Positions 1 to 55,611 of a stretch of 64,000 nt of DNA are shown here, piece by piece. The first letter of the stretch is position 1. Each line of letters begins with the position of its first letter. The notes under the pieces are model-generated. The model saw nothing but the letters and a program-made list of their open reading frames with translations, did not search any database and had not been told where the DNA came from. The translations under genes were made by a program, and so were the position numbers. Source of the DNA: a virus. The stretch lies in the UHGV virus genome UHGV-0038496. One strand, written 5' to 3'.

Positions 1-231
1 GCATCCCCAACGAAGTGCAATAAACTTACTGATTAATTGTGGGCAAGCAACTGAAGGAGCATAGATCCATGCATACCATTCCGGCAGGGTATCGGTGTAC
101 CCCATGTGCAGGAAGACGATAGTCATGGCAAGCATACCAATGTTGGACCACAACTTAGCCTGAGATACCTTATTGGGATCGTCCGGTGCTGCGACCAGCA
201 TCCACAAAAAGGATTTGATTTTCTTGAACAT
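1..231 (-). CDS. Hypothetical small membrane protein, truncated by window edge
   Basis: Minus-strand ATG at 229-231 (MFKKIKSFLWMLVAAPDDPNK...), 77 codons open to position 1; hydrophobic stretch IGMLAMTIVFL; no family recognised. Confidence 0.35.
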   Translation of the reverse strand, partial: MFKKIKSFLWMLVAAPDDPNKVSQAKLWSNIGMLAMTIVFLHMGYTDTLPEWYAWIYAPSVACPQLISKFIALRWGC

Positions 232-1306: not shown

Positions 1307-1386
1307 GTTTTCTCCTGACTAAAATTCTTGACATTATTTTAGCACTAAACTCCTCAAAATGCAACCAGAGGCTTCCTTGCCGTTGG

Positions 1387-1701
1387 TTATTTCTCCTTGT
1401 TACTCAGGAGAATCTGGATAATTTGTTGAATGTCGCTCCGCAATCCATTAACGTCACTTTTGACCTCTTTCCTTAACTCGTCAAGGTTATCTTGAATATC
1501 TTTAAGACGCTGGTTCAACACCGCGTCAAGTCTATCTTTTGTAACCATATTGCTTTTCACCAAAATAAGGTCCTTCTCTAAATCATCCAATCTTTTAGAG
1601 ACGGCTTTCCACTTTACGTGCCACTGACCAAAAATCCAGACACCTATCGGGACAATAACGCTCATGATTATCTCAAAAAGCGTACCAAAGTCCAGTTCCA
1701 C
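1387..1701 (-). CDS. Membrane-anchored coiled-coil protein (unknown function)
   Basis: 104 aa; N-terminal hydrophobic helix IIMSVIVPIGVWIFGQW followed by heptad-rich charged region. Confidence 0.45.
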   Translation of the reverse strand: MELDFGTLFEIIMSVIVPIGVWIFGQWHVKWKAVSKRLDDLEKDLILVKSNMVTKDRLDAVLNQRLKDIQDNLDELRKEVKSDVNGLRSDIQQIIQILLSNKEK

Positions 1702-7666: not shown

Positions 7667-7738
7667 ATTTCCTCTCAGTTGGGAGAAACCCTTGTGACCT
7701 ATTTTACCAAAAAACAGCAAAATAGTCAATTACAGATA

Positions 7739-30800: not shown

Positions 30801-30855
30801 TCTGTCTCCTTCAAGGATTATGGACACTTAATTATTATACCATGATGACTACAAA

Positions 30856-32585: not shown

Positions 32586-33593
32586 TTATTCACCTGCAAG
32601 AGTGACTTTAACAACCAGTTCAGGACGGGTGTTAACAGCCAACATAGAGGTTTCAGACTCAACTTTTTCTTCACGCAGATAAGCGGAGTGTTTGTACCAC
32701 ATGTACAATTCTTGTGCCGGAGCATTTGCTTCTTGCAGGTCATCTGCCGGAGCAAAGTGCAGCTGGAACATAGAATCGACACCCATCGGTACTAAACGTG
32801 CTTCTTTTGCCGGGATGTTGCCGGAGATATCTTCGATGAAGGTCATACCTTTGTGTTCAAATACACGGTAGACTGAGTTTTCACCGCCAGCACCCAGACG
32901 GCGACGCAGAGGTTCCTGTTGAGAGCCGTAGTAGGTGTAAGCCAGTTCTACCAGCGGATGATGAACCAGTGCACTGAAGAATTCAGGAGAGCACAGGCAG
33001 ATAATGCGGTATGCACCAGCATTGTCACCAGCTTGCAGAGCAATGTGCAGACGGCCTTCTTCGATGACTTCCATCGGGTCCTGAGCAGCATCAGCCGGAT
33101 CGATTTCGATAGCTTTCTGTTCTACGCCCCACAAGGTGTAGTAGTTGTACTGGCAGGTTGCATCGCCAGGAGCATAGGATTGACCCATGATAGCAGCAAA
33201 CAGTGCTTTTTCACGCAGTGCTTCATGAGAAATACGAATGCGACGAACTACACGGGTTACAACGTCTTCTACAGTTTTCGGAGCATCCGGGCTGAAATAA
33301 CGACGGAAGTTCTGAACGTCAGCAGCAGTGATACCTTTGTCGAGAGGGAAAAAAGGTATGTTCAAATTTTTAATCTGTGCACGTTCACTTCCGACGTAGT
33401 TTCTTTCGCCACCACGACGACGAGCAGGAATATCTGCTACAACTTCGTCAACGCGTTCGATTTGTGCGATGGTAGAAGTACCCAGGTGGGTTTCAAAAAG
33501 GTTCATGCCAGTGATCAGACGGAATTGGCGTGGAACCAGTTCAAGAGTTGCACCCAGGTCAACAATACCAAAATCATCTTTACGAGTGATCAT
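32586..33593 (-). CDS. Major capsid protein
   Basis: 335 aa; position between scaffold-like gene and head-completion genes, strong terminator downstream; HK97-fold MCP-like composition; no family recognised by eye. Confidence 0.7.
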   Translation of the reverse strand: MITRKDDFGIVDLGATLELVPRQFRLITGMNLFETHLGTSTIAQIERVDEVVADIPARRRGGERNYVGSERAQIKNLNIPFFPLDKGITAADVQNFRRYFSPDAPKTVEDVVTRVVRRIRISHEALREKALFAAIMGQSYAPGDATCQYNYYTLWGVEQKAIEIDPADAAQDPMEVIEEGRLHIALQAGDNAGAYRIICLCSPEFFSALVHHPLVELAYTYYGSQQEPLRRRLGAGGENSVYRVFEHKGMTFIEDISGNIPAKEARLVPMGVDSMFQLHFAPADDLQEANAPAQELYMWYKHSAYLREEKVESETSMLAVNTRPELVVKVTLAGE

Positions 33594-35490: not shown

Positions 35491-35556
35491 TTTTACCTCA
35501 TGTAAACTATTCTACCACACTGCAAATTAAAATGCAACCCTGTTTATGAAAATTTT

Positions 35557-37216: not shown

Positions 37217-38002
37217 TTAAATCATCCTCTTATACATAGAGGGTGAAACAATCTTCGGAATAACACATGGCATCGCAACTTCCTCTTTTTCAAGGTAGTT
37301 GATTGCAGAAGCAATGGAGTCGGCCCAGTCATCTTTACGGCTAAAGGTTGACCGTTCGCCGTTGAATTTCTCCAGCTCTGTCAAAAATGCTTCCAGTGTA
37401 TCAGGGTCGAAACTTGACCTGACAAGCCGAACCATACCCTGTTGGGCAAGGTTGGCAAACGGTGAGAAACGGGTGAGTTTTGATTTGTTAGACGGCATTG
37501 GGTCTTCTTCCACCCTGAAACCTCCAGCAAGGAGTTTGCGGGATGAAGTAAGAAACTCACTCTTACCTGCCTGACCGGGGTCCACAGAGAAGACAATCAC
37601 ACAATCTTCACCATCAAACTCTGCCTGTTTCCTGATAATAACATCGCGTTCACCAGCTTTCTTGCAGAACTTACCGCTCAAGCCTGTGGAATACCTGCCA
37701 TCATCTACGTTTTCAGGACAATAGTCACCAGAGATGTAGTAGTAACCATCGCTATCCTTGCTGACTTTGATACTGGCTGTATAGTCGGGGAATTTGTTGC
37801 CAGAGGTACGTTCTGTACCAGCTTTATCCCACGCTCTTACAGAAACTGCTCCTAGGGGGACATGATCCGCATCTTTCAAGAATGTGCGACTGAAATAGTT
37901 TGCGCCTTCCGGTTTAGCGAACCAGTTACCATAGAGAAGTTGTGCTTTTTCCAGTTCTGGCAGACCTTCTAGGAATGCAAGATATTCTGGGTTATCACGC
38001 AA
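37217..38002 (-). CDS. Terminase large subunit, 3' exon (nuclease domain)
   Basis: 261 aa beginning LRDNPEYL; upstream frame closed by TGA a few codons earlier, so this is not a complete gene; intron core immediately upstream. Confidence 0.75.
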   Translation of the reverse strand: MRDNPEYLAFLEGLPELEKAQLLYGNWFAKPEGANYFSRTFLKDADHVPLGAVSVRAWDKAGTERTSGNKFPDYTASIKVSKDSDGYYYISGDYCPENVDDGRYSTGLSGKFCKKAGERDVIIRKQAEFDGEDCVIVFSVDPGQAGKSEFLTSSRKLLAGGFRVEEDPMPSNKSKLTRFSPFANLAQQGMVRLVRSSFDPDTLEAFLTELEKFNGERSTFSRKDDWADSIASAINYLEKEEVAMPCVIPKIVSPSMYKRMI

Positions 38003-39009
38003 GCAGATAGGGTTATCGTGTCCTGGTGTTCAGGGCCGGACGCAACTCCGACCCCCGTTGGTTCCATCCACCGCATCCATGCTCGGCTGCATGTTACCAT
38101 GCAGAGCAGACTATATCACGATCCTGTTTCTCACAGGACCCTTCGCTTTTCGAGCACCATCAGCTTGTGCCCTACTCCCTTTCGGGATAGTCGTTGAACT
38201 ACAATTACCAATCATAATTGTTTGAAATGTAAGTATAAGTTTTCCTTTCCTTGATACTTTTCACTGTACGGTGAGAAACCCCCCACAATCTTGCCACCGC
38301 ACCAACGGATAAGCCTTTTTGTAAATCTTCGCAGATACCAATCACCTTGTGCTCACTTATTCTGTTAGCTGAAGGTATTTCCCTAAAGTGAAACTCCGCA
38401 GAGATATCTGGGTATACTGATCCATTCTTTATACCACTTACAAGGGTTTGATTGACACCGAACATCTGACAGATATCTTTTACCCTTGCACCTTGCTCTA
38501 ATAGCCTGCATATTTCAAGGGCAGTGGCATCATCCAAATACCTGTATTTATTTACATAATCTTTTTTAAGTCCAGTTTCATGGGCGTGGTGTGTGTTTTC
38601 CTCTGGGGTTGTCCACTCAAGGTTCCATGCGGCGTTATTCAACTTATTACCGTCCAAGTGATTTACTTGGGTTTTCACGCTAGGATTATCATTATCAACA
38701 AAAACCTCAGCAACAACTCTGTGAACAAGCACTTGGAACTTTTTGCCGTCCTCACACAGGGAAACCACAGCATAGCCTGTCTTTTTATGCGTAACAGGTT
38801 GAAGGAATTTATTAGAATACAAACTATAAATTCTGCCATCATATGTCACGCAATAGTGTGGGTAACCTAAAAATCCTAAATTCTTCATTTCAAACACTCC
38901 CTACTACAGTTTCGGAAGAATAATTATAGCTGCTGATTATCTGAAAGTCAATCAGATTTTCCAGCAATTAACGAAGTTATTCGACGTGCATTACTGCACG
39001 AAGCCACTA
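38003..39009 (-). mobile_element. Group I intron C in terminase gene, carrying HNH ORF (approximate boundaries)
   Basis: 3' part (38003-38204) contains AACGACTATCC...GATATAGTCTGCTCTGCATGGTAACATGCAGCCGAGCATGGATGCGGTGGATGGAACCAACGGGGGT, about 50/51 nt identical to nrdD intron 2. Confidence 0.6.
38205..38897 (-). CDS. Intron-encoded HNH homing endonuclease (NUMOD-like N-terminus)
   Basis: 230 aa; QVLVHRVVAEVFV, VNHLDGNKLNNAAWNLEW HNH motif; C-terminal helix-turn-helix-like region. Confidence 0.8.
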   Translation of the reverse strand: MFEMKNLGFLGYPHYCVTYDGRIYSLYSNKFLQPVTHKKTGYAVVSLCEDGKKFQVLVHRVVAEVFVDNDNPSVKTQVNHLDGNKLNNAAWNLEWTTPEENTHHAHETGLKKDYVNKYRYLDDATALEICRLLEQGARVKDICQMFGVNQTLVSGIKNGSVYPDISAEFHFREIPSANRISEHKVIGICEDLQKGLSVGAVARLWGVSHRTVKSIKERKTYTYISNNYDW

Positions 39010-39327
39010 CAGATTAATGGTTGCACCAATAAAGGCGATAGAGAGGGGTTTTGGAACTATCTCAACACCTTTACCGTTAACATACGTGTACTTCTCGATC
39101 AACTCTTCTGGCGTATCGCCGAAGATAAATTCCCCATCCCTACGGATGAAATAACGCTTAACGCCACACTTACTTTCATCGGGGTAGCCTTCGTCATCAA
39201 GCCACCAACGAACAAGTTTGGCTAAATAATGTTCAGAATCGGGGTTACAGCTGATCACCATTCGCGAAGAGTATTTTGATTTCGACCTCATACGGGAAAT
39301 CAGGTAGTCGATTTGCTCCCATTCGAA
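39010..39327 (-). CDS. Terminase large subunit, internal exon (approximate boundaries)
   Basis: Frame FEWEQIDYLISRMRSKSKYSSRMVISCNPDSEHY...IVPKPLSIAFIGATI; ISCNP resembles ATPase motif III; ends just before a DNP-type motif that continues in the 3' exon. Confidence 0.55.
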
Positions 39328-39684
39328 CTGAGTCGTTTGTGTTCAGGCAAGGTCGCTAATCTTGCCCCGCCACCATGTGGCAGCTGCATGTCTCCATGCA
39401 GACCAGACTATATCTTATAAGCGGTAACAACCGCCTATCCTCCCGTTTCGGCAGTCTTAAAAGACTGTGGGTTTCCCCAGCCGCTTGGCCCTAACGCCCG
39501 TAAGCGATAGTCGTTGAGCACACATCCTATCAGGATGCTTCGCTGCGGATTATCTAAATCAACACACTATTACCATACCTTCGGTCTTTCTCCAAAGCCA
39601 ATATTATGTTACCATAATAGATTGGTGGTGTCAATAGTAAAGATTTCCCCGCAATTAGGGAGGTTTTACGAGAGCTACCAACTA
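39328..39684 (-). mobile_element. Group I intron B in terminase gene, ORF-less (approximate boundaries)
   Basis: Contains CAACGACTATCG...GATATAGTCTGGTCTGCATGGAGACATGCAGCTGCC...CCTGAACAC core elements (minus-strand sense). Confidence 0.5.
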
Positions 39685-39735: not shown

Positions 39736-39975
39736 CTACTCCGACGCGGTGTGCTAAGACACCCGCCACATATTACCATGTGGAACAGACTATCTCTTCC
39801 ATCCTTGGCGTGCCGTTTGGATCACCAATCGCTTGTGATTCTACTCCCCTACACTCATCGGGGATAGTCGTTACACTCGGTTTCAATTAATCCTTTAACC
39901 GTAGCTCGGTATTGTCCTTTTGTCAAGGAGTTTCACCGAATTAGGCACGAAGGGCAGGTTTGTTTACCCTTGATG
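39736..39975 (-). mobile_element. Group I intron A in terminase gene, ORF-less (approximate boundaries)
   Basis: Contains GTAACGACTATCCCC...GAGATAGTCTGTTCCACATGGTAATATGTGGCGGGTGTCTTAGCACACC core, paralogous to the tape measure intron. Confidence 0.45.
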
Positions 39976-41079
39976 ATTCAGCTTATCTTGGACGTATTCC
40001 ATGTGGCAGTACTTGATTACCGCACCATCCCTTTTCTTATTCCACTTACCTGTCTTTGCATCGTAATATGGAAAAGTAAACTTATGATCTTTCTCCCTAA
40101 ATTTTGGCCTCATATATTCAGGAAGATCCAGATACACACTTAGTGCTTTAGGCCACAGACCGCCTTCACCTTCCAGTTGTGGGGTTGTCCTACGGAACAT
40201 CACCACAGAGGTGTTTGGGTCATCTATCATCTTTAGTGGGAGAAGCTGCAAAAGAAAGGATTTACCACTGTTGCCTGTCACTGCAATGCAGTTTTCCAGT
40301 CTGGTGATAAAATAGCCTGTTGTGGTAGCAAAACAATATTTGTAACCATCTTCCGGCTCAAACTCTTCGAACGTTGCATCGTTATTAAGAGCAATCGTAC
40401 CTGCACGTTCGTTGGAGAACACAACTTTGTAACCCTTTTCGAAGAAGATCTGTGCATTGAATCCCAGAGATGATCCGAGGTATTGCAAGAAATCAGCCTG
40501 TTCTTTCGTTGGAACAACGTAGACATGCGAGTCATTACCGTTCAGGTAAATCTCATACCAGATCTGCAACAACTGGCGACGATCACAGTTATACCATTCA
40601 TCTGTGAATTTGTAATATCTTGCCTTTTCTTTCAGCTCTTCGTCAGAAATATCAAGGCCAGTACCACCCATGTTCACAAACGTGGTTTGCATACGCATTG
40701 CCAACTCATCGTTAGCATGTTGTTCGGCCACTTCACTGAAACAAAGTGTACCGTAATCTGTTCCGTCTTCTGGTACATACAGGACTGTGTGCTCGTCAGA
40801 CAATTCCTGACAAATACCATCCTGCACAACCCTGGTCAATTTATCGCATTCCAGCTTAACAAACTCTTCAGGCTGGATAAACATAGCCTTACCAGTTTCT
40901 TTATCAAACTGGAGGATATCTTGACCATCCCAGTCTGAGATTCTGATCCAACCGTTAGGTGTCATCACCTCATGTCGCATTGACAAACAACCCGCTGCCC
41001 CACCAATGATCAGGAAGTCGGCATCATTTTCCAGAATCATTTGTTGTTTACGGGAGCATGGGCCATACATTTTAGCCAT
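39964..41079 (-). CDS. Terminase large subunit, 5' exon (ATPase N-terminus with intein in P-loop)
   Basis: ORF as called (371 aa); extein sequence IIGGAAG / SGKSFLL reconstitutes Walker A GAAGSGKS once residues 31-270 are removed; the true 5' splice site lies somewhere before the in-frame stop at 39964. Confidence 0.75.
   Translation of the reverse strand: MAKMYGPCSRKQQMILENDADFLIIGGAAGCLSMRHEVMTPNGWIRISDWDGQDILQFDKETGKAMFIQPEEFVKLECDKLTRVVQDGICQELSDEHTVLYVPEDGTDYGTLCFSEVAEQHANDELAMRMQTTFVNMGGTGLDISDEELKEKARYYKFTDEWYNCDRRQLLQIWYEIYLNGNDSHVYVVPTKEQADFLQYLGSSLGFNAQIFFEKGYKVVFSNERAGTIALNNDATFEEFEPEDGYKYCFATTTGYFITRLENCIAVTGNSGKSFLLQLLPLKMIDDPNTSVVMFRRTTPQLEGEGGLWPKALSVYLDLPEYMRPKFREKDHKFTFPYYDAKTGKWNKKRDGAVIKYCHMEYVQDKLNHQG
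40270..40989 (-). mobile_element. Intein (mini-intein, about 240 aa) in terminase Walker A motif
   Basis: Begins CLSMRHEVMTPNGWIRISDW (intein block A pattern) and ends ...ENCIAVTGN followed by +1 Ser; flanking exteins form an intact P-loop. Confidence 0.7.
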
Positions 41080-41375
41080 TAATTCTCCTTATTGAATAAA
41101 GATTTTACATAATCCTGCAAGATGATTAATTTGGCACGATCATTGCTACAGGAGAGATTGTTCTGCCTCATAATTGCAGAGTTCTCCGCATCTGGTGCAC
41201 CTTTCACCAGAGGGATAGCTTTTGCTGGTGGGATCATAGCTGCCGCAGGAGCCTCTACAGCGAGTTGTTCAACTTTCTGCGGTGCAACTGTGACTGTCGT
41301 ATTTTTAGGTGAGCTACAACCTACCAAGGACATAGAAAACGTAAGTGCAATAGCTAATGCAAGTAACCACCTCAT
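41079..41375 (-). CDS. o-spanin-like outer-membrane lipoprotein
   Basis: 98 aa; signal peptide with lipobox SLVG-C; Pro/Ala-rich mature part; start overlaps the stop of the i-spanin-like gene by 4 nt. Confidence 0.55.
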   Translation of the reverse strand: MRWLLALAIALTFSMSLVGCSSPKNTTVTVAPQKVEQLAVEAPAAAMIPPAKAIPLVKGAPDAENSAIMRQNNLSCSNDRAKLIILQDYVKSLFNKEN

Positions 41376-41791
41376 TGCTGCACCTCCGAATTAATACTTT
41401 CGTTGTAGATATCGATCACTTTATCTGGGATCTGGCTCTGTTGCCCTTCAGGAGATGACTGGAACTGCTGTTGTGTAGCCCCACCAAAAGCTCCTGGAGA
41501 GTTCATGGCGTTCTGCATATTAGCCAGCTTCTGCTCAAGCTCCCTGACTTCATAAGCGTGTTCCAGCTTCGTCTGGTTTGCTTGCAGCTTCTGCTCCATC
41601 ATCAACTTATCCCATTTCTGCTCAGTTACAGCGACTCCTTCGTTGTAGGCATTCTGTATCTGGGTGTTGTACCAACTGTGCACTCCAGCGCAGGCTACAA
41701 CCAGTAAGACAGCCGCGATAGTCCATTTTATCACGCGCTTGTATTTTATCAGGAATGCAAGTACTGCTGGCACGAAACCTCCAGAATCCAT
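41372..41791 (-). CDS. i-spanin-like protein (N-terminal TM helix plus periplasmic coiled coil)
   Basis: 139 aa; TM segment WTIAAVLLVVACAGV; coiled-coil EQKWDKLMMEQKLQANQTKLEHAYEVRELEQKLANMQ. Confidence 0.5.
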   Translation of the reverse strand: MDSGGFVPAVLAFLIKYKRVIKWTIAAVLLVVACAGVHSWYNTQIQNAYNEGVAVTEQKWDKLMMEQKLQANQTKLEHAYEVRELEQKLANMQNAMNSPGAFGGATQQQFQSSPEGQQSQIPDKVIDIYNESINSEVQQ

Positions 41792-41828
41792 AAATAAAAA
41801 AACCCCGTGACCATTTCAGTCAACGGGG
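41792..41828 (-). terminator. Rho-independent terminator (minus strand)
   Basis: CCCCGTTGAC-TGAAATG-GTCACGGGG hairpin followed by TTTTTTTATTT on minus strand. Confidence 0.55.
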
Positions 41829-41896
41829 CGGGTTAAAACTTATAAACCAATGAAAGGAGATGTATCAATGAAACTGATTACGAACTGAAAACCACC

Positions 41897-42206: not shown

Positions 42207-42282
42207 TGGCACCCCGTACAGGACTCGAACCTGTAACCTATGGCTTAGAAGGCCACTGTTCTTCCATTTGAACTAACGGGGC
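42207..42282 (-). tRNA. tRNA-Arg (anticodon UCU), CCA encoded
   Basis: 76-nt cloverleaf on minus strand: acceptor GCCCCGT/ACGGGGT, D stem GTTC/GAAC, anticodon stem GTGGC/GCCAT with loop CTTCTAA, T arm ACAGG-TTCGAGT-CCTGT, discriminator G, 3' CCA. Confidence 0.85.
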
Positions 42283-42699: not shown

Positions 42700-42996
42700 A
42701 TAACCTCCAGAACAGTTGATAGGTCGAGTTTATCACGTATTCTGGAGATTGTCAATAGATTGCTGGTCCGTCCCCAGCACTTTCAAGCCCTCTATGGGAT
42801 AGGGGCAAGCCATTACCGCACTCAGGCTCGACCTTATTACAGGTTGCCGGAACCCTACGCGTCCGTAGCCCCCACGTTCCTACCATTTTTCAGTGTGGTG
42901 CACTATCAAGCCCTCTAGGGGGAACACTGTAAGTATAGCGTTTTAACTTAACATTGTCAAGCTAAAAGCCATCAAATTCGTCTCTCATGGCGCTCC

Positions 42997-46461: not shown

Positions 46462-46935
46462 ATGCAAGACGGTCGTAAAATGCGTGAAGAGAAAATGCTG
46501 ATCGTTCAGCTTATCCCTAAACCGTTGTGGGGAGTAGCAGGACGTGAAGCTATTGGTCGTAGCTTGTGGGATAAAGCTCGTAAACGCTGCTATAAAGAAG
46601 CAGAGTACAGATGCGAAGTCTGCGGTGGTAAAGGGCCTAAACACCCTGTGGAAGCCCATGAGTTGTATCTGTTTGAAGATCACAAGATCACCTGTGTGGG
46701 GCTGATCGCATTATGCCCAGACTGCCATATGAGCGTGCATCCTGGACGCTGCAACTGCCTCGGCAGAGATGTTTACCTCAAGGCAAGAAAGCATTTTGCT
46801 GACGTAAACTGGTTGACAGAACAGCAGGCACAGGAGTATTATGAAGAGTGTTTCGAAGAGTGGAGAGAACTAAGCAAGATCAAGATCTGGGAAACTGATT
46901 TTTCATGGTTGGAGAATTACGCAAAAGGTAACTAA
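46462..46935 (+). CDS. Small cysteine/histidine-rich protein (possible HNH-like zinc-binding nuclease)
   Basis: 157 aa; CEVCGG...HPVEAHE...CPDCH pattern; AGAGAGG Shine-Dalgarno. Confidence 0.4.
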   Translation: MQDGRKMREEKMLIVQLIPKPLWGVAGREAIGRSLWDKARKRCYKEAEYRCEVCGGKGPKHPVEAHELYLFEDHKITCVGLIALCPDCHMSVHPGRCNCLGRDVYLKARKHFADVNWLTEQQAQEYYEECFEEWRELSKIKIWETDFSWLENYAKGN

Positions 46936-48359: not shown

Positions 48360-49637
48360 ATGAATCAAGTAAAAACAACCCTCTATGCACTCAACCGTGA
48401 CGGAAGCGTACAGCGGTGGAAAGTGTTTACAGAGGGTGAAAAAGTAATAGTTGAGTTCGGTAAGAAAGACGGTAAAATGCAGTACAAGGAGACGATCTGC
48501 AAAGCTAAAAACGTAGGCCGTGCCAATGAGACTACTCCAGAGCAACAGGCCGTTCTGGAAGCAACCAGTAAGTGGGAGAAGCAAGTTCGCCTGGGTTATG
48601 TTGAAGATGAAAGCAATCTTGTGGTGGAAGAAAATCTGATTCCGATGCTGGTCCATGATTACCTGAAACGCGGTAAATCACTTATTCTGCCGTGCTGGGG
48701 ATCACACAAGCTGGATGGTCTGCGGCTGCTGGTAAACTTCGAAGGGGATACTCCTGTGTTTATCTCACGCGGTAACAAATCGTATCCTATCGAAGGGGAC
48801 ATTATCAAACAACTTAAACAGCTCCGTATCCGCACTGGATTCAGCCGTTTTGACGGTGAGATTTACATTCATGGTCTGCCGTTGCAGAAAATAGTGTCTC
48901 TGGCGAAACGCTGGCGCACACAGGAAGAAATTCAGGCCGAGATCGATAAAGACTATGCCGCCGACATAAAACGCCGTCAGGCAGCGATTAAGGCAGGAAA
49001 ACCGACGTATCTGAACTTCAACAAAGAAGAGTTTCCTGTTGAAGTCGAACCTGTGCGTGATGACATGCGTTACGGTGGTTACTCAAGCTACGATCTGCAA
49101 TACCACATCTTCGATATTCCGAGTAACAAAGTATGGTGGGATCCTGAAACAGAGCAAGGGCGTTGTGCAGATCTTCTTGGCATCAAAGATTTCATTGAAG
49201 ATCTTGACCACATCTTCACTGCTGAGCCGGAACTGTTCCACACGGTTGAAGAGTGTGAAGAATCGGTGGGACGCTACATGGCTGAAGGTTATGAAGGTAC
49301 AGTACTGCGTAATTTCTGTGGTGAATATGAATACGGTCAACGTTCATGTAATGCTTTGAAATGGAAGAAATTTAACACGGATGAGGCCAAAGTTGTCGGT
49401 GCTGAAGAAGATAAAAACGGTGAAGGTGTATTGATTTGCCAGCTGAAAAATGGTAAAGTATTTAAGTGCAAAATGAAAGGCACACATGGTGAACGGTTGT
49501 ACTGGAGGATGGCTAATCTGAAAGGTAAATTTATCACGTTTAAGTACCAGGCTCTCACAGAAGACGGTCTTCCTAGTTTCCCTACAGGTATAGCGGTACG
49601 GGATGTAGACCCAATTACCTGGGAGGTTTTAGAATGA
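48360..49637 (+). CDS. ATP-dependent DNA ligase
   Basis: Start at MNQVKTT with AGGAG Shine-Dalgarno; adenylation motif I SHKLDGLR (KxDG); size 425 aa typical of phage ligases. Confidence 0.8.
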   Translation: MNQVKTTLYALNRDGSVQRWKVFTEGEKVIVEFGKKDGKMQYKETICKAKNVGRANETTPEQQAVLEATSKWEKQVRLGYVEDESNLVVEENLIPMLVHDYLKRGKSLILPCWGSHKLDGLRLLVNFEGDTPVFISRGNKSYPIEGDIIKQLKQLRIRTGFSRFDGEIYIHGLPLQKIVSLAKRWRTQEEIQAEIDKDYAADIKRRQAAIKAGKPTYLNFNKEEFPVEVEPVRDDMRYGGYSSYDLQYHIFDIPSNKVWWDPETEQGRCADLLGIKDFIEDLDHIFTAEPELFHTVEECEESVGRYMAEGYEGTVLRNFCGEYEYGQRSCNALKWKKFNTDEAKVVGAEEDKNGEGVLICQLKNGKVFKCKMKGTHGERLYWRMANLKGKFITFKYQALTEDGLPSFPTGIAVRDVDPITWEVLE

Positions 49638-50278
49638 AAAAGAGAAATAGAAAACCTGTAGAGTGGTATTTGTTAGATTTTGACTTTAAATTCAGAGATG
49701 GTACATGGTGCAACTGTACTGAAGTTGTTGTAGGTGATAAATCTTACAAAGTTTTAACAAAAGCAGGTATGATATGGTTTAATATCAAACAGAGAACAAG
49801 GTTGGGGTCAGCTTACCAGAAAAATAAGCCCACTTATGCTGGAGTAAAAAATTGTTTTAAGGATTTTCAAGATTTTTGTGATTTTTGCCAAACAGCCCCA
49901 GGGTATCACATGAAGGATAAGTATGGTAGAAACTATGCTTTAGATAAAGACATTCTTGATAGAAGTGGTAGAAAAGAGTATAGTAGAGACACCTGTTGCT
50001 TTGTTCCTTTGGATGTAAATAATATGTTGTTAACTAGAGGAGGTAAAAAGGCTTCAGACTGTCCACCAGGTATATGTATGACTTCTTGTAAAAAATATGT
50101 AGTTCGTGATGGTCGTGGTAAAAGCAAAGTCTGTAATACGTTAGAGGAAGCCATAGCTGTTAAAAATAAGTTAAAAGCCGAGAGAATCTTGAGCAAGGTG
50201 GAAAGTGGTTATCTCGATTATGACAAAAGGATAGCTTTGCGTTTAACGGAGATAGCTGAAGATCTTCTAGGAGGGTAG
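49634..50278 (+). CDS. Cysteine-rich putative DNA-binding/endonuclease-like protein
   Basis: 214 aa; several Cys clusters (CNC, CDFC, CCF, CPPGIC); basic; family not resolved. Confidence 0.35.
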   Translation: MKKRNRKPVEWYLLDFDFKFRDGTWCNCTEVVVGDKSYKVLTKAGMIWFNIKQRTRLGSAYQKNKPTYAGVKNCFKDFQDFCDFCQTAPGYHMKDKYGRNYALDKDILDRSGRKEYSRDTCCFVPLDVNNMLLTRGGKKASDCPPGICMTSCKKYVVRDGRGKSKVCNTLEEAIAVKNKLKAERILSKVESGYLDYDKRIALRLTEIAEDLLGG

Positions 50279-50282
50279 TCAA

Positions 50283-50783
50283 ATGGCTATAATAGATCGG
50301 ATGCCGATGCTGCAAAAAGCATTGCTGTACATACTGATTTTCACGCTGTGTAACATTGCGGTTGGTGTTTGGGGATGGTTGGTTATCCCGATAACGACTT
50401 CTTGCTGTGTTGCTGCAAACATGTTTCTGCGTGACAACGTGATCCACCAGTATGGAGCATTCTGGTCTATAAGCATGGTGGCAATAGCTGGTATGGTTAC
50501 AGCAGCTGTATCTCCTGTTGCCACACAGGCCGCGATAGGTTGCTTTGTGGCTGTTGTAGCAAGCTGCGGCGCTGCTAACATACTTTATAGATTCACAGAT
50601 AACATAGTGGTTGTTAATATCTGCACTGCTGCTGTAGATGCATTGATATTCAGTCCGGTTGCATTCCTGGAGATTATGCCAGGTGTTATGGCTATGCAGT
50701 TTGGGGTGAAATGCATTGCGGTTGTGCTGGTTGGGGTACTGATTGCTAAACTTGAACGAAGAGAGGCTCACAACAATGATTAA
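50283..50783 (+). CDS. Polytopic inner-membrane protein
   Basis: 166 aa with about four hydrophobic helices. Confidence 0.5.
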   Translation: MAIIDRMPMLQKALLYILIFTLCNIAVGVWGWLVIPITTSCCVAANMFLRDNVIHQYGAFWSISMVAIAGMVTAAVSPVATQAAIGCFVAVVASCGAANILYRFTDNIVVVNICTAAVDALIFSPVAFLEIMPGVMAMQFGVKCIAVVLVGVLIAKLERREAHNND

Positions 50784-54144: not shown

Positions 54145-54879
54145 ATGATTAATTTCTTCTTTAATGATAATTTCCCATTTTGGTACAAAGATGGGGAGTT
54201 GATTTGGACAAAGAATCACTACAGAGGTAGAGGCAAAAGTCAACTCTTTATAAAAGCTGGCACAAAAGCGGGTTGTAAAGATAGGCAAGGGTATATCGGT
54301 ATTAAATCCTCAGAGGTTCGTGAGAGGAAACGTCATAGAATAATTTATGATATGTTTTATAACTCCTTAACAAAAAACTTTCTTGTCAGGCATTTAAATG
54401 ACATAAAAGGTCAGGATAACATAGAAAATCTCGCTATGGGCACGTACAGCGAGAACAATAAGGATCGCATAAGAAATAATTTACTACAGAAAAATAACTT
54501 GTACGGTCACGCAGGTGTTCATAAGAAACGTGAGAACGGTTTATGGTACGCAGAATATAACACCCTTGCGGGAGGGACAAGATTTGCTGGGTATTTTAAG
54601 ACCAAAGACGAGGCTGTAGAGGCAAGGAAACAGCTAGTTTCAGGCACTTACAAAGGCAAAACACTTAAACTCAATAACACATCTGGGTGTACAGGTGTTA
54701 AATGGAGACATGACACAGGCAAGTGGCAAGTTCAGATTGCTGAAAACAGCAAAAGGTATCACTTAGGGCAATACGCAGAGTGGTGGGACGCTGTATGTGT
54801 CAGAAAATCAGCAGAATATGCAAAACATAATGGTTTGTTGGAAGAGTGGTTGATTGGAGGTTCGAATGAAATTGAATAA
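54145..54879 (+). CDS. Free-standing HNH homing endonuclease with AP2 domains
   Basis: 244 aa; VRHLNDIKGQDNIENL HNH motif; two AP2-like modules (GHAGVHK...WYAEY and GCTGVKW...WQVQI); paralog of 17903..18568. Confidence 0.75.
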   Translation: MINFFFNDNFPFWYKDGELIWTKNHYRGRGKSQLFIKAGTKAGCKDRQGYIGIKSSEVRERKRHRIIYDMFYNSLTKNFLVRHLNDIKGQDNIENLAMGTYSENNKDRIRNNLLQKNNLYGHAGVHKKRENGLWYAEYNTLAGGTRFAGYFKTKDEAVEARKQLVSGTYKGKTLKLNNTSGCTGVKWRHDTGKWQVQIAENSKRYHLGQYAEWWDAVCVRKSAEYAKHNGLLEEWLIGGSNEIE

Positions 54880-55345
54880 AGATAAGCAATTAAGAGCATT
54901 TTTTCGTCTTATTTCGTTCAGCGAGGGGACCGACCGTTATGGTGGAGAAGATGCTTCGTACCACATCCTGGTTGGTGGAAAGTACATAAGGGATCTCAGT
55001 AAGCACCCCGGTATCTATGTTAAACTGCGTCCAGGCTTAACGTCATCAGCATTCGGCAGATACCAGATCTTGGAGAAATATGCCAAGCATTATATGAAAC
55101 AACTTGGCTTAAAAGATTTTGGTCCGGCGAGTCAGGATGCTATAGCAAAACAACTGATCCGTGAATGTAAAGCCCTTGATGACATATATGAAGGAAGGAT
55201 CCGTTCAGCTATCTACAAATGCCGTAGCCGTTGGGCAAGTTTCCCACCGCCTCCTGGTTCTGGTAAACTTTATGATCAGCGGGTTGAGGATGTTGAAAAA
55301 ATGTTGAAAATCTTCCGCGATGCTGGAGGTGTGGTCACGGATTAA
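54866..55345 (+). CDS. Endolysin, lambda R-like lytic transglycosylase
   Basis: Start at MKLNKDKQ with GGAGG Shine-Dalgarno; SEGTD (catalytic Glu), GRYQ, KQLGLKDFxPxSQDA, RWASFP align with lambda R. Confidence 0.8.
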   Translation: MKLNKDKQLRAFFRLISFSEGTDRYGGEDASYHILVGGKYIRDLSKHPGIYVKLRPGLTSSAFGRYQILEKYAKHYMKQLGLKDFGPASQDAIAKQLIRECKALDDIYEGRIRSAIYKCRSRWASFPPPPGSGKLYDQRVEDVEKMLKIFRDAGGVVTD

Positions 55346-55351
55346 GTTTAT

Positions 55352-55380
55352 TTGACAGCCTGCTTTGTTTTTGGTATACT
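55352..55380 (+). promoter_or_regulatory. Sigma70 consensus promoter
   Basis: TTGACA-N17-TATACT upstream of the 55408 gene. Confidence 0.5.
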
Positions 55381-55407: not shown

Positions 55408-55611
55408 ATGAAAACACTGTGGGCTGTCTTTATTTCTGCTATGATGTTTGCTTCTGGTTCTGCATGGGCAGGTGATACAGCTTACCTTGTGGACACTTAT
55501 CGTGGCAACGGGCAGAAAGTTTGTATCTATGAAACGAGCCAAGGTGAAGTGTACGAACTGGTGAAACAGGGTGAGGCTGGTAGTTGCCCACGTACACATT
55601 ATTTTGACTAA
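55408..55611 (+). CDS. Small secreted protein with signal peptide
   Basis: 67 aa; MKTLWAVFISAMMFASGSAWA cleavable signal peptide (AWA-G); two Cys in mature part; AAGGAGG Shine-Dalgarno. Confidence 0.5.
   Translation: MKTLWAVFISAMMFASGSAWAGDTAYLVDTYRGNGQKVCIYETSQGEVYELVKQGEAGSCPRTHYFD

Follow-up and report, generated by a model that had tools for sequence, protein, structure and literature searches.

How does a phage complete lysis when its spanin genes stand beside the terminase gene and its endolysin is encoded elsewhere, on the other strand? This question is raised by a 64,000-nt stretch of the UHGV virus genome UHGV-0038496 (the window; all coordinates are those of the whole stretch). By its sequence, the window is part of the genome of a Vequintavirinae-type (rV5-like) myophage: its major capsid protein (32586..33593) shares 88% identity with the Vequintavirus counterpart, and its endolysin (54866..55345) is 89% identical to those of V18 and EduardKellenberger. 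Two small minus-strand genes that precede the gene for the large terminase subunit (TerL) had been read from the sequence as a spanin pair, and profile matches, homologues and annotated relatives agree with that proposal. We consider it highly probable that the two encode the two-component spanin of this phage, a protein of the inner membrane (i-spanin) together with a lipoprotein of the outer membrane (o-spanin). The genes concerned are the following.

41372..41773, minus strand: predicted i-spanin gene, 133 aa; its open frame reaches back to an ATG at 41791 (139 aa)
41079..41375, minus strand: predicted o-spanin gene, 98 aa
37217..41079, minus strand: TerL gene, with exons 41079..39967, 39339..39013 and 38020..37217
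54866..55345, plus strand: gene for a soluble, lambda R-like endolysin (GH104)

A predicted spanin pair next to the large terminase gene

The i-spanin gene had been placed at 41372..41791 by the sequence-only reading. The open reading frame (ORF) exists on the minus strand and yields 139 aa from the ATG; its 5' boundary probably does not hold. The ATG at 41791 sits directly after a T-run and lacks a Shine-Dalgarno sequence, whereas the GTG at 41773 has GGAGG 4 nt upstream. Because of this spacing, and because a homologue in the metagenomic contig L004 (79% identical) uses the equivalent start, the GTG is most likely the initiation codon and the product a 133-aa protein. This form contains a single strong hydrophobic segment at residues 17–34 (Kyte-Doolittle ~2.0), flanked on the N-terminal side by KYKRVIK with a net charge of +4 and followed by a stretch of net charge −1, from which a type II, N-in/C-out topology with one N-terminal transmembrane helix is predicted. 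An AlphaFold2 (AF2) model built from the single sequence places a helix at residues 12–90, a disordered linker at 91–116 and a second helix at 117–131 (mean pLDDT 72.6). The proposed architecture, a transmembrane helix followed by a helical periplasmic domain, is thus borne out, the coiled coil itself being a prediction only.

Profile and sequence searches connect this protein to known spanin families. It matches phrog_4297, ‘Rz-like spanin’, with an E-value of 8.8e-30 over residues 9–135, and there are weaker matches to three further Rz-like families (phrog_1403, phrog_1152 and phrog_6197). Homologues were found by tblastn in 125 phage records, where the matches coincide with features annotated as i-spanin; the i-spanins annotated in Murica and in the BASEL phages are ~40% identical to it. 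A C-terminal (V/I)DIYNESI motif is conserved, and the membrane helix and the DIYNES core persist in alignments down to 27% identity.

The neighbouring gene was proposed to encode a lipobox lipoprotein (SLVG-C), a claim that the alignments uphold. Its product begins with a positively charged n-region and a hydrophobic h-region, which lead into the lipobox LVGC at residues 17–20, and L17, G19 and C20 do not vary among three genera-level relatives, from the window to Mydovirus; processing at Cys20 is predicted. The residue at +2 is Ser, relatives having Ser, Ala or Glu. The mature part comprises 79 aa, seven of them Pro, and ends in a conserved NNLSCSNDRAKLIILQDY block that is kept, together with the L-x-G-C of the lipobox, in alignments down to 39% identity. 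The protein matches phrog_1267, also ‘Rz-like spanin’, at an E-value of 2.5e-17, and tblastn detected homologues, annotated as o-spanin, in 183 phage records. Many of the records matched by the two spanins carry i-spanin and o-spanin annotations, and often a ‘large terminase subunit’ within the same match. With these E-values and homologues in 125 and 183 records, the match to spanins lies far above chance.

The two reading frames overlap by 4 nt (ATGA), and the o-spanin stop overlaps the TerL start by 1 nt at 41079 (TAATG). The starts of o-spanin and TerL each have a Shine-Dalgarno sequence of their own, GGAGG and AAGGAG, respectively. A start/stop overlap of this kind is counted as the T4-like separate-gene arrangement (PMC7344957), and the arrangement on which the earlier claim of separate spanin genes was based is found equally in Murica, EduardKellenberger and Proteus phage Mydo, all of which, as annotated by CPT and BASEL, share the gene order i-spanin, o-spanin, TerL, a synteny that holds across genera. 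The overlaps suggest that translation of the three genes is coupled.

The kinship of the pair can be detected at the protein level only, since megablast of the 1.3-kb spanin region against 50,697 phage records returned zero matches. The nearest relatives of the spanin genes are found in uncultured IMG/VR contigs of 118–141 kb, with protein identities of 77–78% for i-spanin and ~90% for o-spanin. Relative to the annotated Vequintavirus pair (Murica, LL12 and BASEL phages), identities fall to ~40% for i-spanin and 54–56% for o-spanin, in contrast to 88% for the capsid protein and 89% for the endolysin. The following is shared with rV5 and Vequintavirus: orthology through phrog_4297 and phrog_1267, gene order, the ATGA and 1-nt overlaps, an upstream terminator, a lambda R-like endolysin ~10–13 kb away on the other strand, and no identified holin. 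On sequence grounds the two proteins are diverged orthologues of the Vequintavirus i-spanin and o-spanin.

Likeness to the classical systems is one of architecture. In lambda, Rz1 is embedded within Rz in another frame, and both belong to a single S-R-Rz/Rz1 cassette. The window's pair resembles Rz/Rz1 in combining a type II inner-membrane helical protein with a small Pro-rich outer-membrane lipoprotein, and its endolysin is homologous to lambda R; it differs in that the genes are separate and remote from the endolysin, in that the i-spanin has no periplasmic cysteines, and in that sequence similarity is not significant beyond weak matches over the membrane helix and the first periplasmic helix. 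T4 spanin genes are not known to adjoin the terminase gene. With T4, whose lysis genes (e, t, pseT.3/pseT.2 and rI) are scattered, the window shares separate spanin genes with a start/stop overlap, although no sequence similarity to PseT.3/PseT.2 or to holin T could be detected. Endolysin, spanins and holin at unlinked loci, as in T4, have been stated for rV5 (PMC3606486) and CB7 (PMC7344957).

Several observations weigh against the spanin assignment. Neither protein has a match in Pfam, and a sequence search of the PDB gave nothing for either, the i-spanin returning noise only. The sole Cys of the i-spanin lies in the membrane helix, leaving none in the periplasm, and the o-spanin has a single periplasmic Cys, C76, which Mydo does not retain; lambda-style disulfide-linked dimers therefore need not apply here, and by these sequences such links are not a feature of the family. 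No promoter was found for the spanin–TerL unit. The assignment rests on architecture and on homology to other predicted spanins, and the literature yielded no experimental test of any member of this family. That last point would also suit a different explanation, in which the two are envelope or packaging accessory proteins (for example, standing in for the small terminase, anchoring packaging at the membrane or excluding superinfection as a pair) and their adjacency to TerL reflects a role in packaging. The translational linkage to TerL fits such a role, as does the fact that no small terminase subunit was identified among the window genes examined around TerL or annotated in the examined stretches of the relatives. 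Yet a type II inner-membrane protein paired with an outer-membrane lipoprotein in overlapping genes is the diagnostic signature of a spanin, both proteins match spanin PHROGs (the i-spanin also the three weaker ones), and spanins adjoining TerL have likewise been described for the SP6 and VP4 podophages (PMC7344957). Moreover, the text of the rV5 paper, in the portion available, names neither protein among the virion proteins found by mass spectrometry. We regard a packaging or exclusion role as very improbable.

For the spanin assignment, a mechanism can be proposed from the lambda Rz/Rz1 model and, likewise, the T4 model. The i-spanin would reside in the inner membrane, N-terminus on the cytoplasmic side, and extend its helical domain into the periplasm. 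The o-spanin would be cut by signal peptidase II, lipidated at Cys20 and sorted to the outer membrane, as expected for Ser rather than Asp at +2. The conserved C-terminal blocks of the two would bind each other, so that the complex spans the periplasm through the peptidoglycan mesh. Once a holin lets the soluble endolysin reach and degrade the wall, the spanin complexes would be freed, and fusion of the inner and outer membranes would complete lysis. The pair would be translated from the same message as TerL, which puts the two genes first in the late morphogenesis block.

The distant endolysin and the timing of the lysis genes

The endolysin and the features that bear on its expression are listed here.

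54866..55345, plus strand: endolysin gene, as above
54145..54879, plus strand: HNH homing endonuclease gene, which precedes the endolysin gene and overlaps its start
41795..41829, minus strand: intrinsic terminator-like hairpin with a U7 tract, directly before the i-spanin start

A lambda R-like endolysin at 54866..55345, on the strand opposite to the spanins, had been recognised from the sequence, and both profile and structure-database searches concur. The protein matches phrog_90 (E 1.5e-40) and lambda lysozyme (PDB 1AM7, E 2.3e-30), its FSEGTD aligning with WSEGTD, the N-terminal catalytic Glu motif (SEGTD); Pfam returned no match for it or for TerL exon 1. Its start lies 13,075 nt from position 41791, in keeping with the ~13 kb first estimated. 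The N-terminus (MKLNKDKQLRAFFRLISFSEGTD...) contains no hydrophobic segment and no signal or signal-anchor-release (SAR) segment, and the protein aligns with the cytoplasmic lambda R from residue 7. Lacking an export signal, it is predicted to be a cytoplasmic enzyme that needs a holin. The sequence-only reading had allowed for a signal-independent release mechanism in place of a holin; an endolysin exported through its own signal or a SAR segment finds no support. Such a route would accord with the lack of a recognisable holin beside either locus and of any match to a holin family; the N-terminus just described and the presence, in the window and its relatives, of several small membrane proteins able to serve as holin make it extremely improbable.

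It was also proposed that the lysis functions belong to differently timed transcription units. Upstream of the spanins, a block of several small ORFs of unknown function, which also holds a tRNA-Arg gene, is preceded by five near-consensus sigma70-like promoters on the minus strand between 42700 and 44000, each with a perfect TTGACA (first hexamers at 42755, 42960, 43322, 43573 and 43973). This block ends at the hairpin of 41795..41829, the fold of which (whole-segment minimum free energy −18.3 kcal/mol, z-score −2.7) is followed by UUUUUUU; in Murica a terminator is annotated at the same place, just before the i-spanin gene. The interval from the terminator to the spanin start contains neither a sigma70-like promoter nor a copy of the rV5 late motif, TGGTAAAATA. 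This motif, which resembles an extended −10 element (TGnTAtAAT), has 18 matches in the window with at most one mismatch, against 5.3 expected, mostly on the late strand; they include 1335..1344, 7700..7709, 30833..30842 and 35508..35517 (all on the minus strand), and several lie just before structural genes. No copy lies upstream of the spanins or of the endolysin, the one nearby copy falling inside the i-spanin ORF, so the motif is uninformative on the timing of either.

On the opposite strand, the endolysin gene is surrounded by ligase, exonuclease, phosphoesterase and HNH genes. The immediate order here, exonuclease, phosphoesterase, HNH and endolysin, is rearranged relative to that of EduardKellenberger, which is ligase, HNH and endolysin. 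Sigma70-like promoters occur near the gene, none of them a strong one of its own. It is plausible from these contexts that the spanins are expressed late and the endolysin early or middle, in differently timed units. The endolysin would then accumulate harmlessly in the cytoplasm, being encoded 13 kb away among DNA-metabolism genes, since lysis timing would depend on the holin alone, as in T4.

The lysis genes may instead be dispersed physically and not temporally, the endolysin being expressed late as well, like T4 gene e, with the rest of the spanin interpretation left standing. The endolysin's lack of a strong promoter of its own agrees with this, and the rV5 authors saw sigma70-like promoters genome-wide and only a weak late motif (PMC3606486). 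The literature, in which we found no experiment on timing and neither transcriptome nor RNA-seq for the rV5-like group, leaves room for it. It is less readily reconciled with the opposite-strand position of the gene among those for DNA metabolism, with sigma70-like promoters nearby in place of any rV5 late motif, or with spanin genes that open the structural block after a terminator. We give a late endolysin an appreciable but less than even chance.

Spanins beside TerL, a distant lysin and a gap where the holin should be have been known for rV5-like phages since 2013. An account of the rV5 lysin, gp89, was given by Kropinski et al. (2013), who also reported four transcription units and placed the lysin in a different one from the late genes (PMC3606486). 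Kongari et al. (2018), in their census, class the rv5 families of i-spanin and of o-spanin as ‘separated’ in architecture (PMC6139136), and Buttimer et al. (2020) noted for CB7, rV5 and PVP-SE1 a spanin pair that adjoins the large terminase, outside any lysis cassette (PMC7344957). The announcement of LL12 identified endolysin, i-spanin and o-spanin and no holin (PMC6658697); the authors of KPP-1 likewise did not identify one. The reading given here is correct but, since these publications cover the layout, restates known features of the group, and as a discovery a layout annotated in many GenBank records carries little weight. Its practical value lies in a correct annotation for a diverged lineage, down to the i-spanin's GTG start, in the removal of one false holin candidate and in a short list of candidates. 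The rV5-like group is widely used in biocontrol of E. coli and Salmonella, and the identity of the holin, on which its lysis clock would depend, is the point of some value.

Candidate holins

Consistent with the earlier observation that no holin lies next to the spanins or the endolysin, an ORF hydropathy scan of the flanks of both loci revealed no small membrane protein with holin features. The scan for hydrophobic segments took in all ORFs of the window and, besides the spanins, flagged two in gene-like positions, 1387..1701 (minus strand) and 50283..50783 (plus strand). Searches against the holin families of PHROGs and Pfam gave no match for these two, for the ORF at 1..231, for 55408..55611 (described below) or for bas59_0111, a Vequintavirus protein. 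Two ORFs are retained as candidates.

1..231, minus strand: inferred holin candidate A, the 5' part of a truncated gene; phrog_1322 ‘membrane protein’, E 1.3e-26
1387..1701, minus strand: inferred holin candidate B, 104 aa; phrog_5345 (unknown function), E 1.7e-34

Candidate A, at the distal end of the late block, is flanked by tail fibre genes. The full gene product has ~88–126 aa and two moderately hydrophobic segments, and full-length homologues end in a variable, highly charged tail of ~13–50 residues. Homologues occur in 374 phage records (Vequintavirinae, phi92-like phages and some Aeromonas phages) and are never annotated as holin; among 5.8 billion proteins searched with its sequence, 14 close homologues came up, one labelled DUF2644 and none bearing the name holin. 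The features of this protein resemble those of holins, which makes it a possible candidate. Candidate B combines one strong membrane helix at the N-terminus with a C-terminal part that is coiled-coil-like, and its homologues, in 221 phage records across genera of the Vequintavirinae, include none called holin. Its gene is directly downstream of that for a gp38-like tail fibre chaperone; in T4, the holin gene t comes after gene 38. At the same place PVP-SE1 has consecutive small genes, two of which are annotated as membrane proteins.

Both are interleaved with tail fibre genes, and apart from them and the spanins no membrane protein was found in the late-strand block of the window. The two may be a holin and its antiholin, or receptor-masking or exclusion proteins. 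That one of them is the missing holin of the Vequintavirinae and phi92-like phages, and would found a new holin family, is possible but rather unlikely. The holin gene may also be located beyond the window, which covers roughly half of the genome if relatives of 130–140 kb are a guide.

The sequence-only reading had suggested 1..231 and 50283..50783 as holins. The former, a conserved two-helix membrane protein, stays a candidate; the latter was rejected. It encodes 166 aa with five hydrophobic segments, and its phage homologues (25–34% identity) are confined to 17 siphophage records, some of which annotate it as a VUT family or vitamin uptake transporter. None was found in Vequintavirus, and since the gene also adjoins an HNH gene it looks like an acquired accessory gene. 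Holins suggested elsewhere for the group offered no counterpart and are much narrower in distribution than candidates A and B: rV5 gp129, a guessed holin, has no homologue in the window or in EduardKellenberger, and bas59_0111, the ‘putative holin’ of the BASEL annotators, is confined to the genus Vequintavirus and has none in the window. A ‘T-type holin’ in a preprint mentioning Vequintavirus belonged to a Tequatrovirus, and Hol 46 of Aeromonas phage PZL-Ah152, a single-helix protein of 67 aa, shows no evident connection to the present phage group.

The interrupted terminase gene and other neighbouring features

The TerL gene was identified by tblastn and by matches to phrog_9526 and phrog_979, and its three exons were mapped by tblastn against the intact TerL of L004 and Murica. 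It is split by two introns. The first holds a group I intron (Rfam RF00028, 39384..39720), and the second, at ~39012..38021, carries an HNH endonuclease ORF at 38205..38897. In rV5, TerL is also in three segments with a homing endonuclease (PMC3606486), in contrast to the uninterrupted TerL of L004. Exon 1 further contains a 234-aa intein-like insert (40288..40989, minus strand) within the Walker A loop, where GGAAG is followed by the insert, CLSMRHEVMTPNGW ... AVTGN, and then by SGKS. The insert begins with Cys and ends with Asn, before a Ser; the IMG/VR relatives have it, and Murica TerL does not. No Pfam match or PDB sequence match was obtained for it, and its AF2 model (pLDDT 37) was too poor for a fold search or for support of a Hint fold.

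Three further features complete the surroundings of the lysis genes.

42207..42282, minus strand: tRNA-Arg(TCT), the single tRNA gene here; Vequintavirus phages have 6–7 tRNAs at this place
55408..55611, plus strand: gene for a small secreted protein of 67 aa, after the endolysin gene; phrog_4641, E 1.1e-20
55352..55380, plus strand: near-consensus sigma70 promoter of that gene, TTGACA-17-TATACT

The 67-aa protein has a cleavable signal peptide (...SAWA, with cleavage before GD) and two Cys. Homologues are present in 123 records. Their genes lie downstream of the endolysin gene in those Vequintavirus records that were compared. One might speculate that the product regulates lysis from the periplasm or has a role related to superinfection.

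Besides the intein-like insert, the 64 kb contain four HNH homing endonuclease ORFs that are free-standing, at 38205..38897 on the minus strand and at 46462..46935, 49634..50278 and 54145..54879 on the plus strand.

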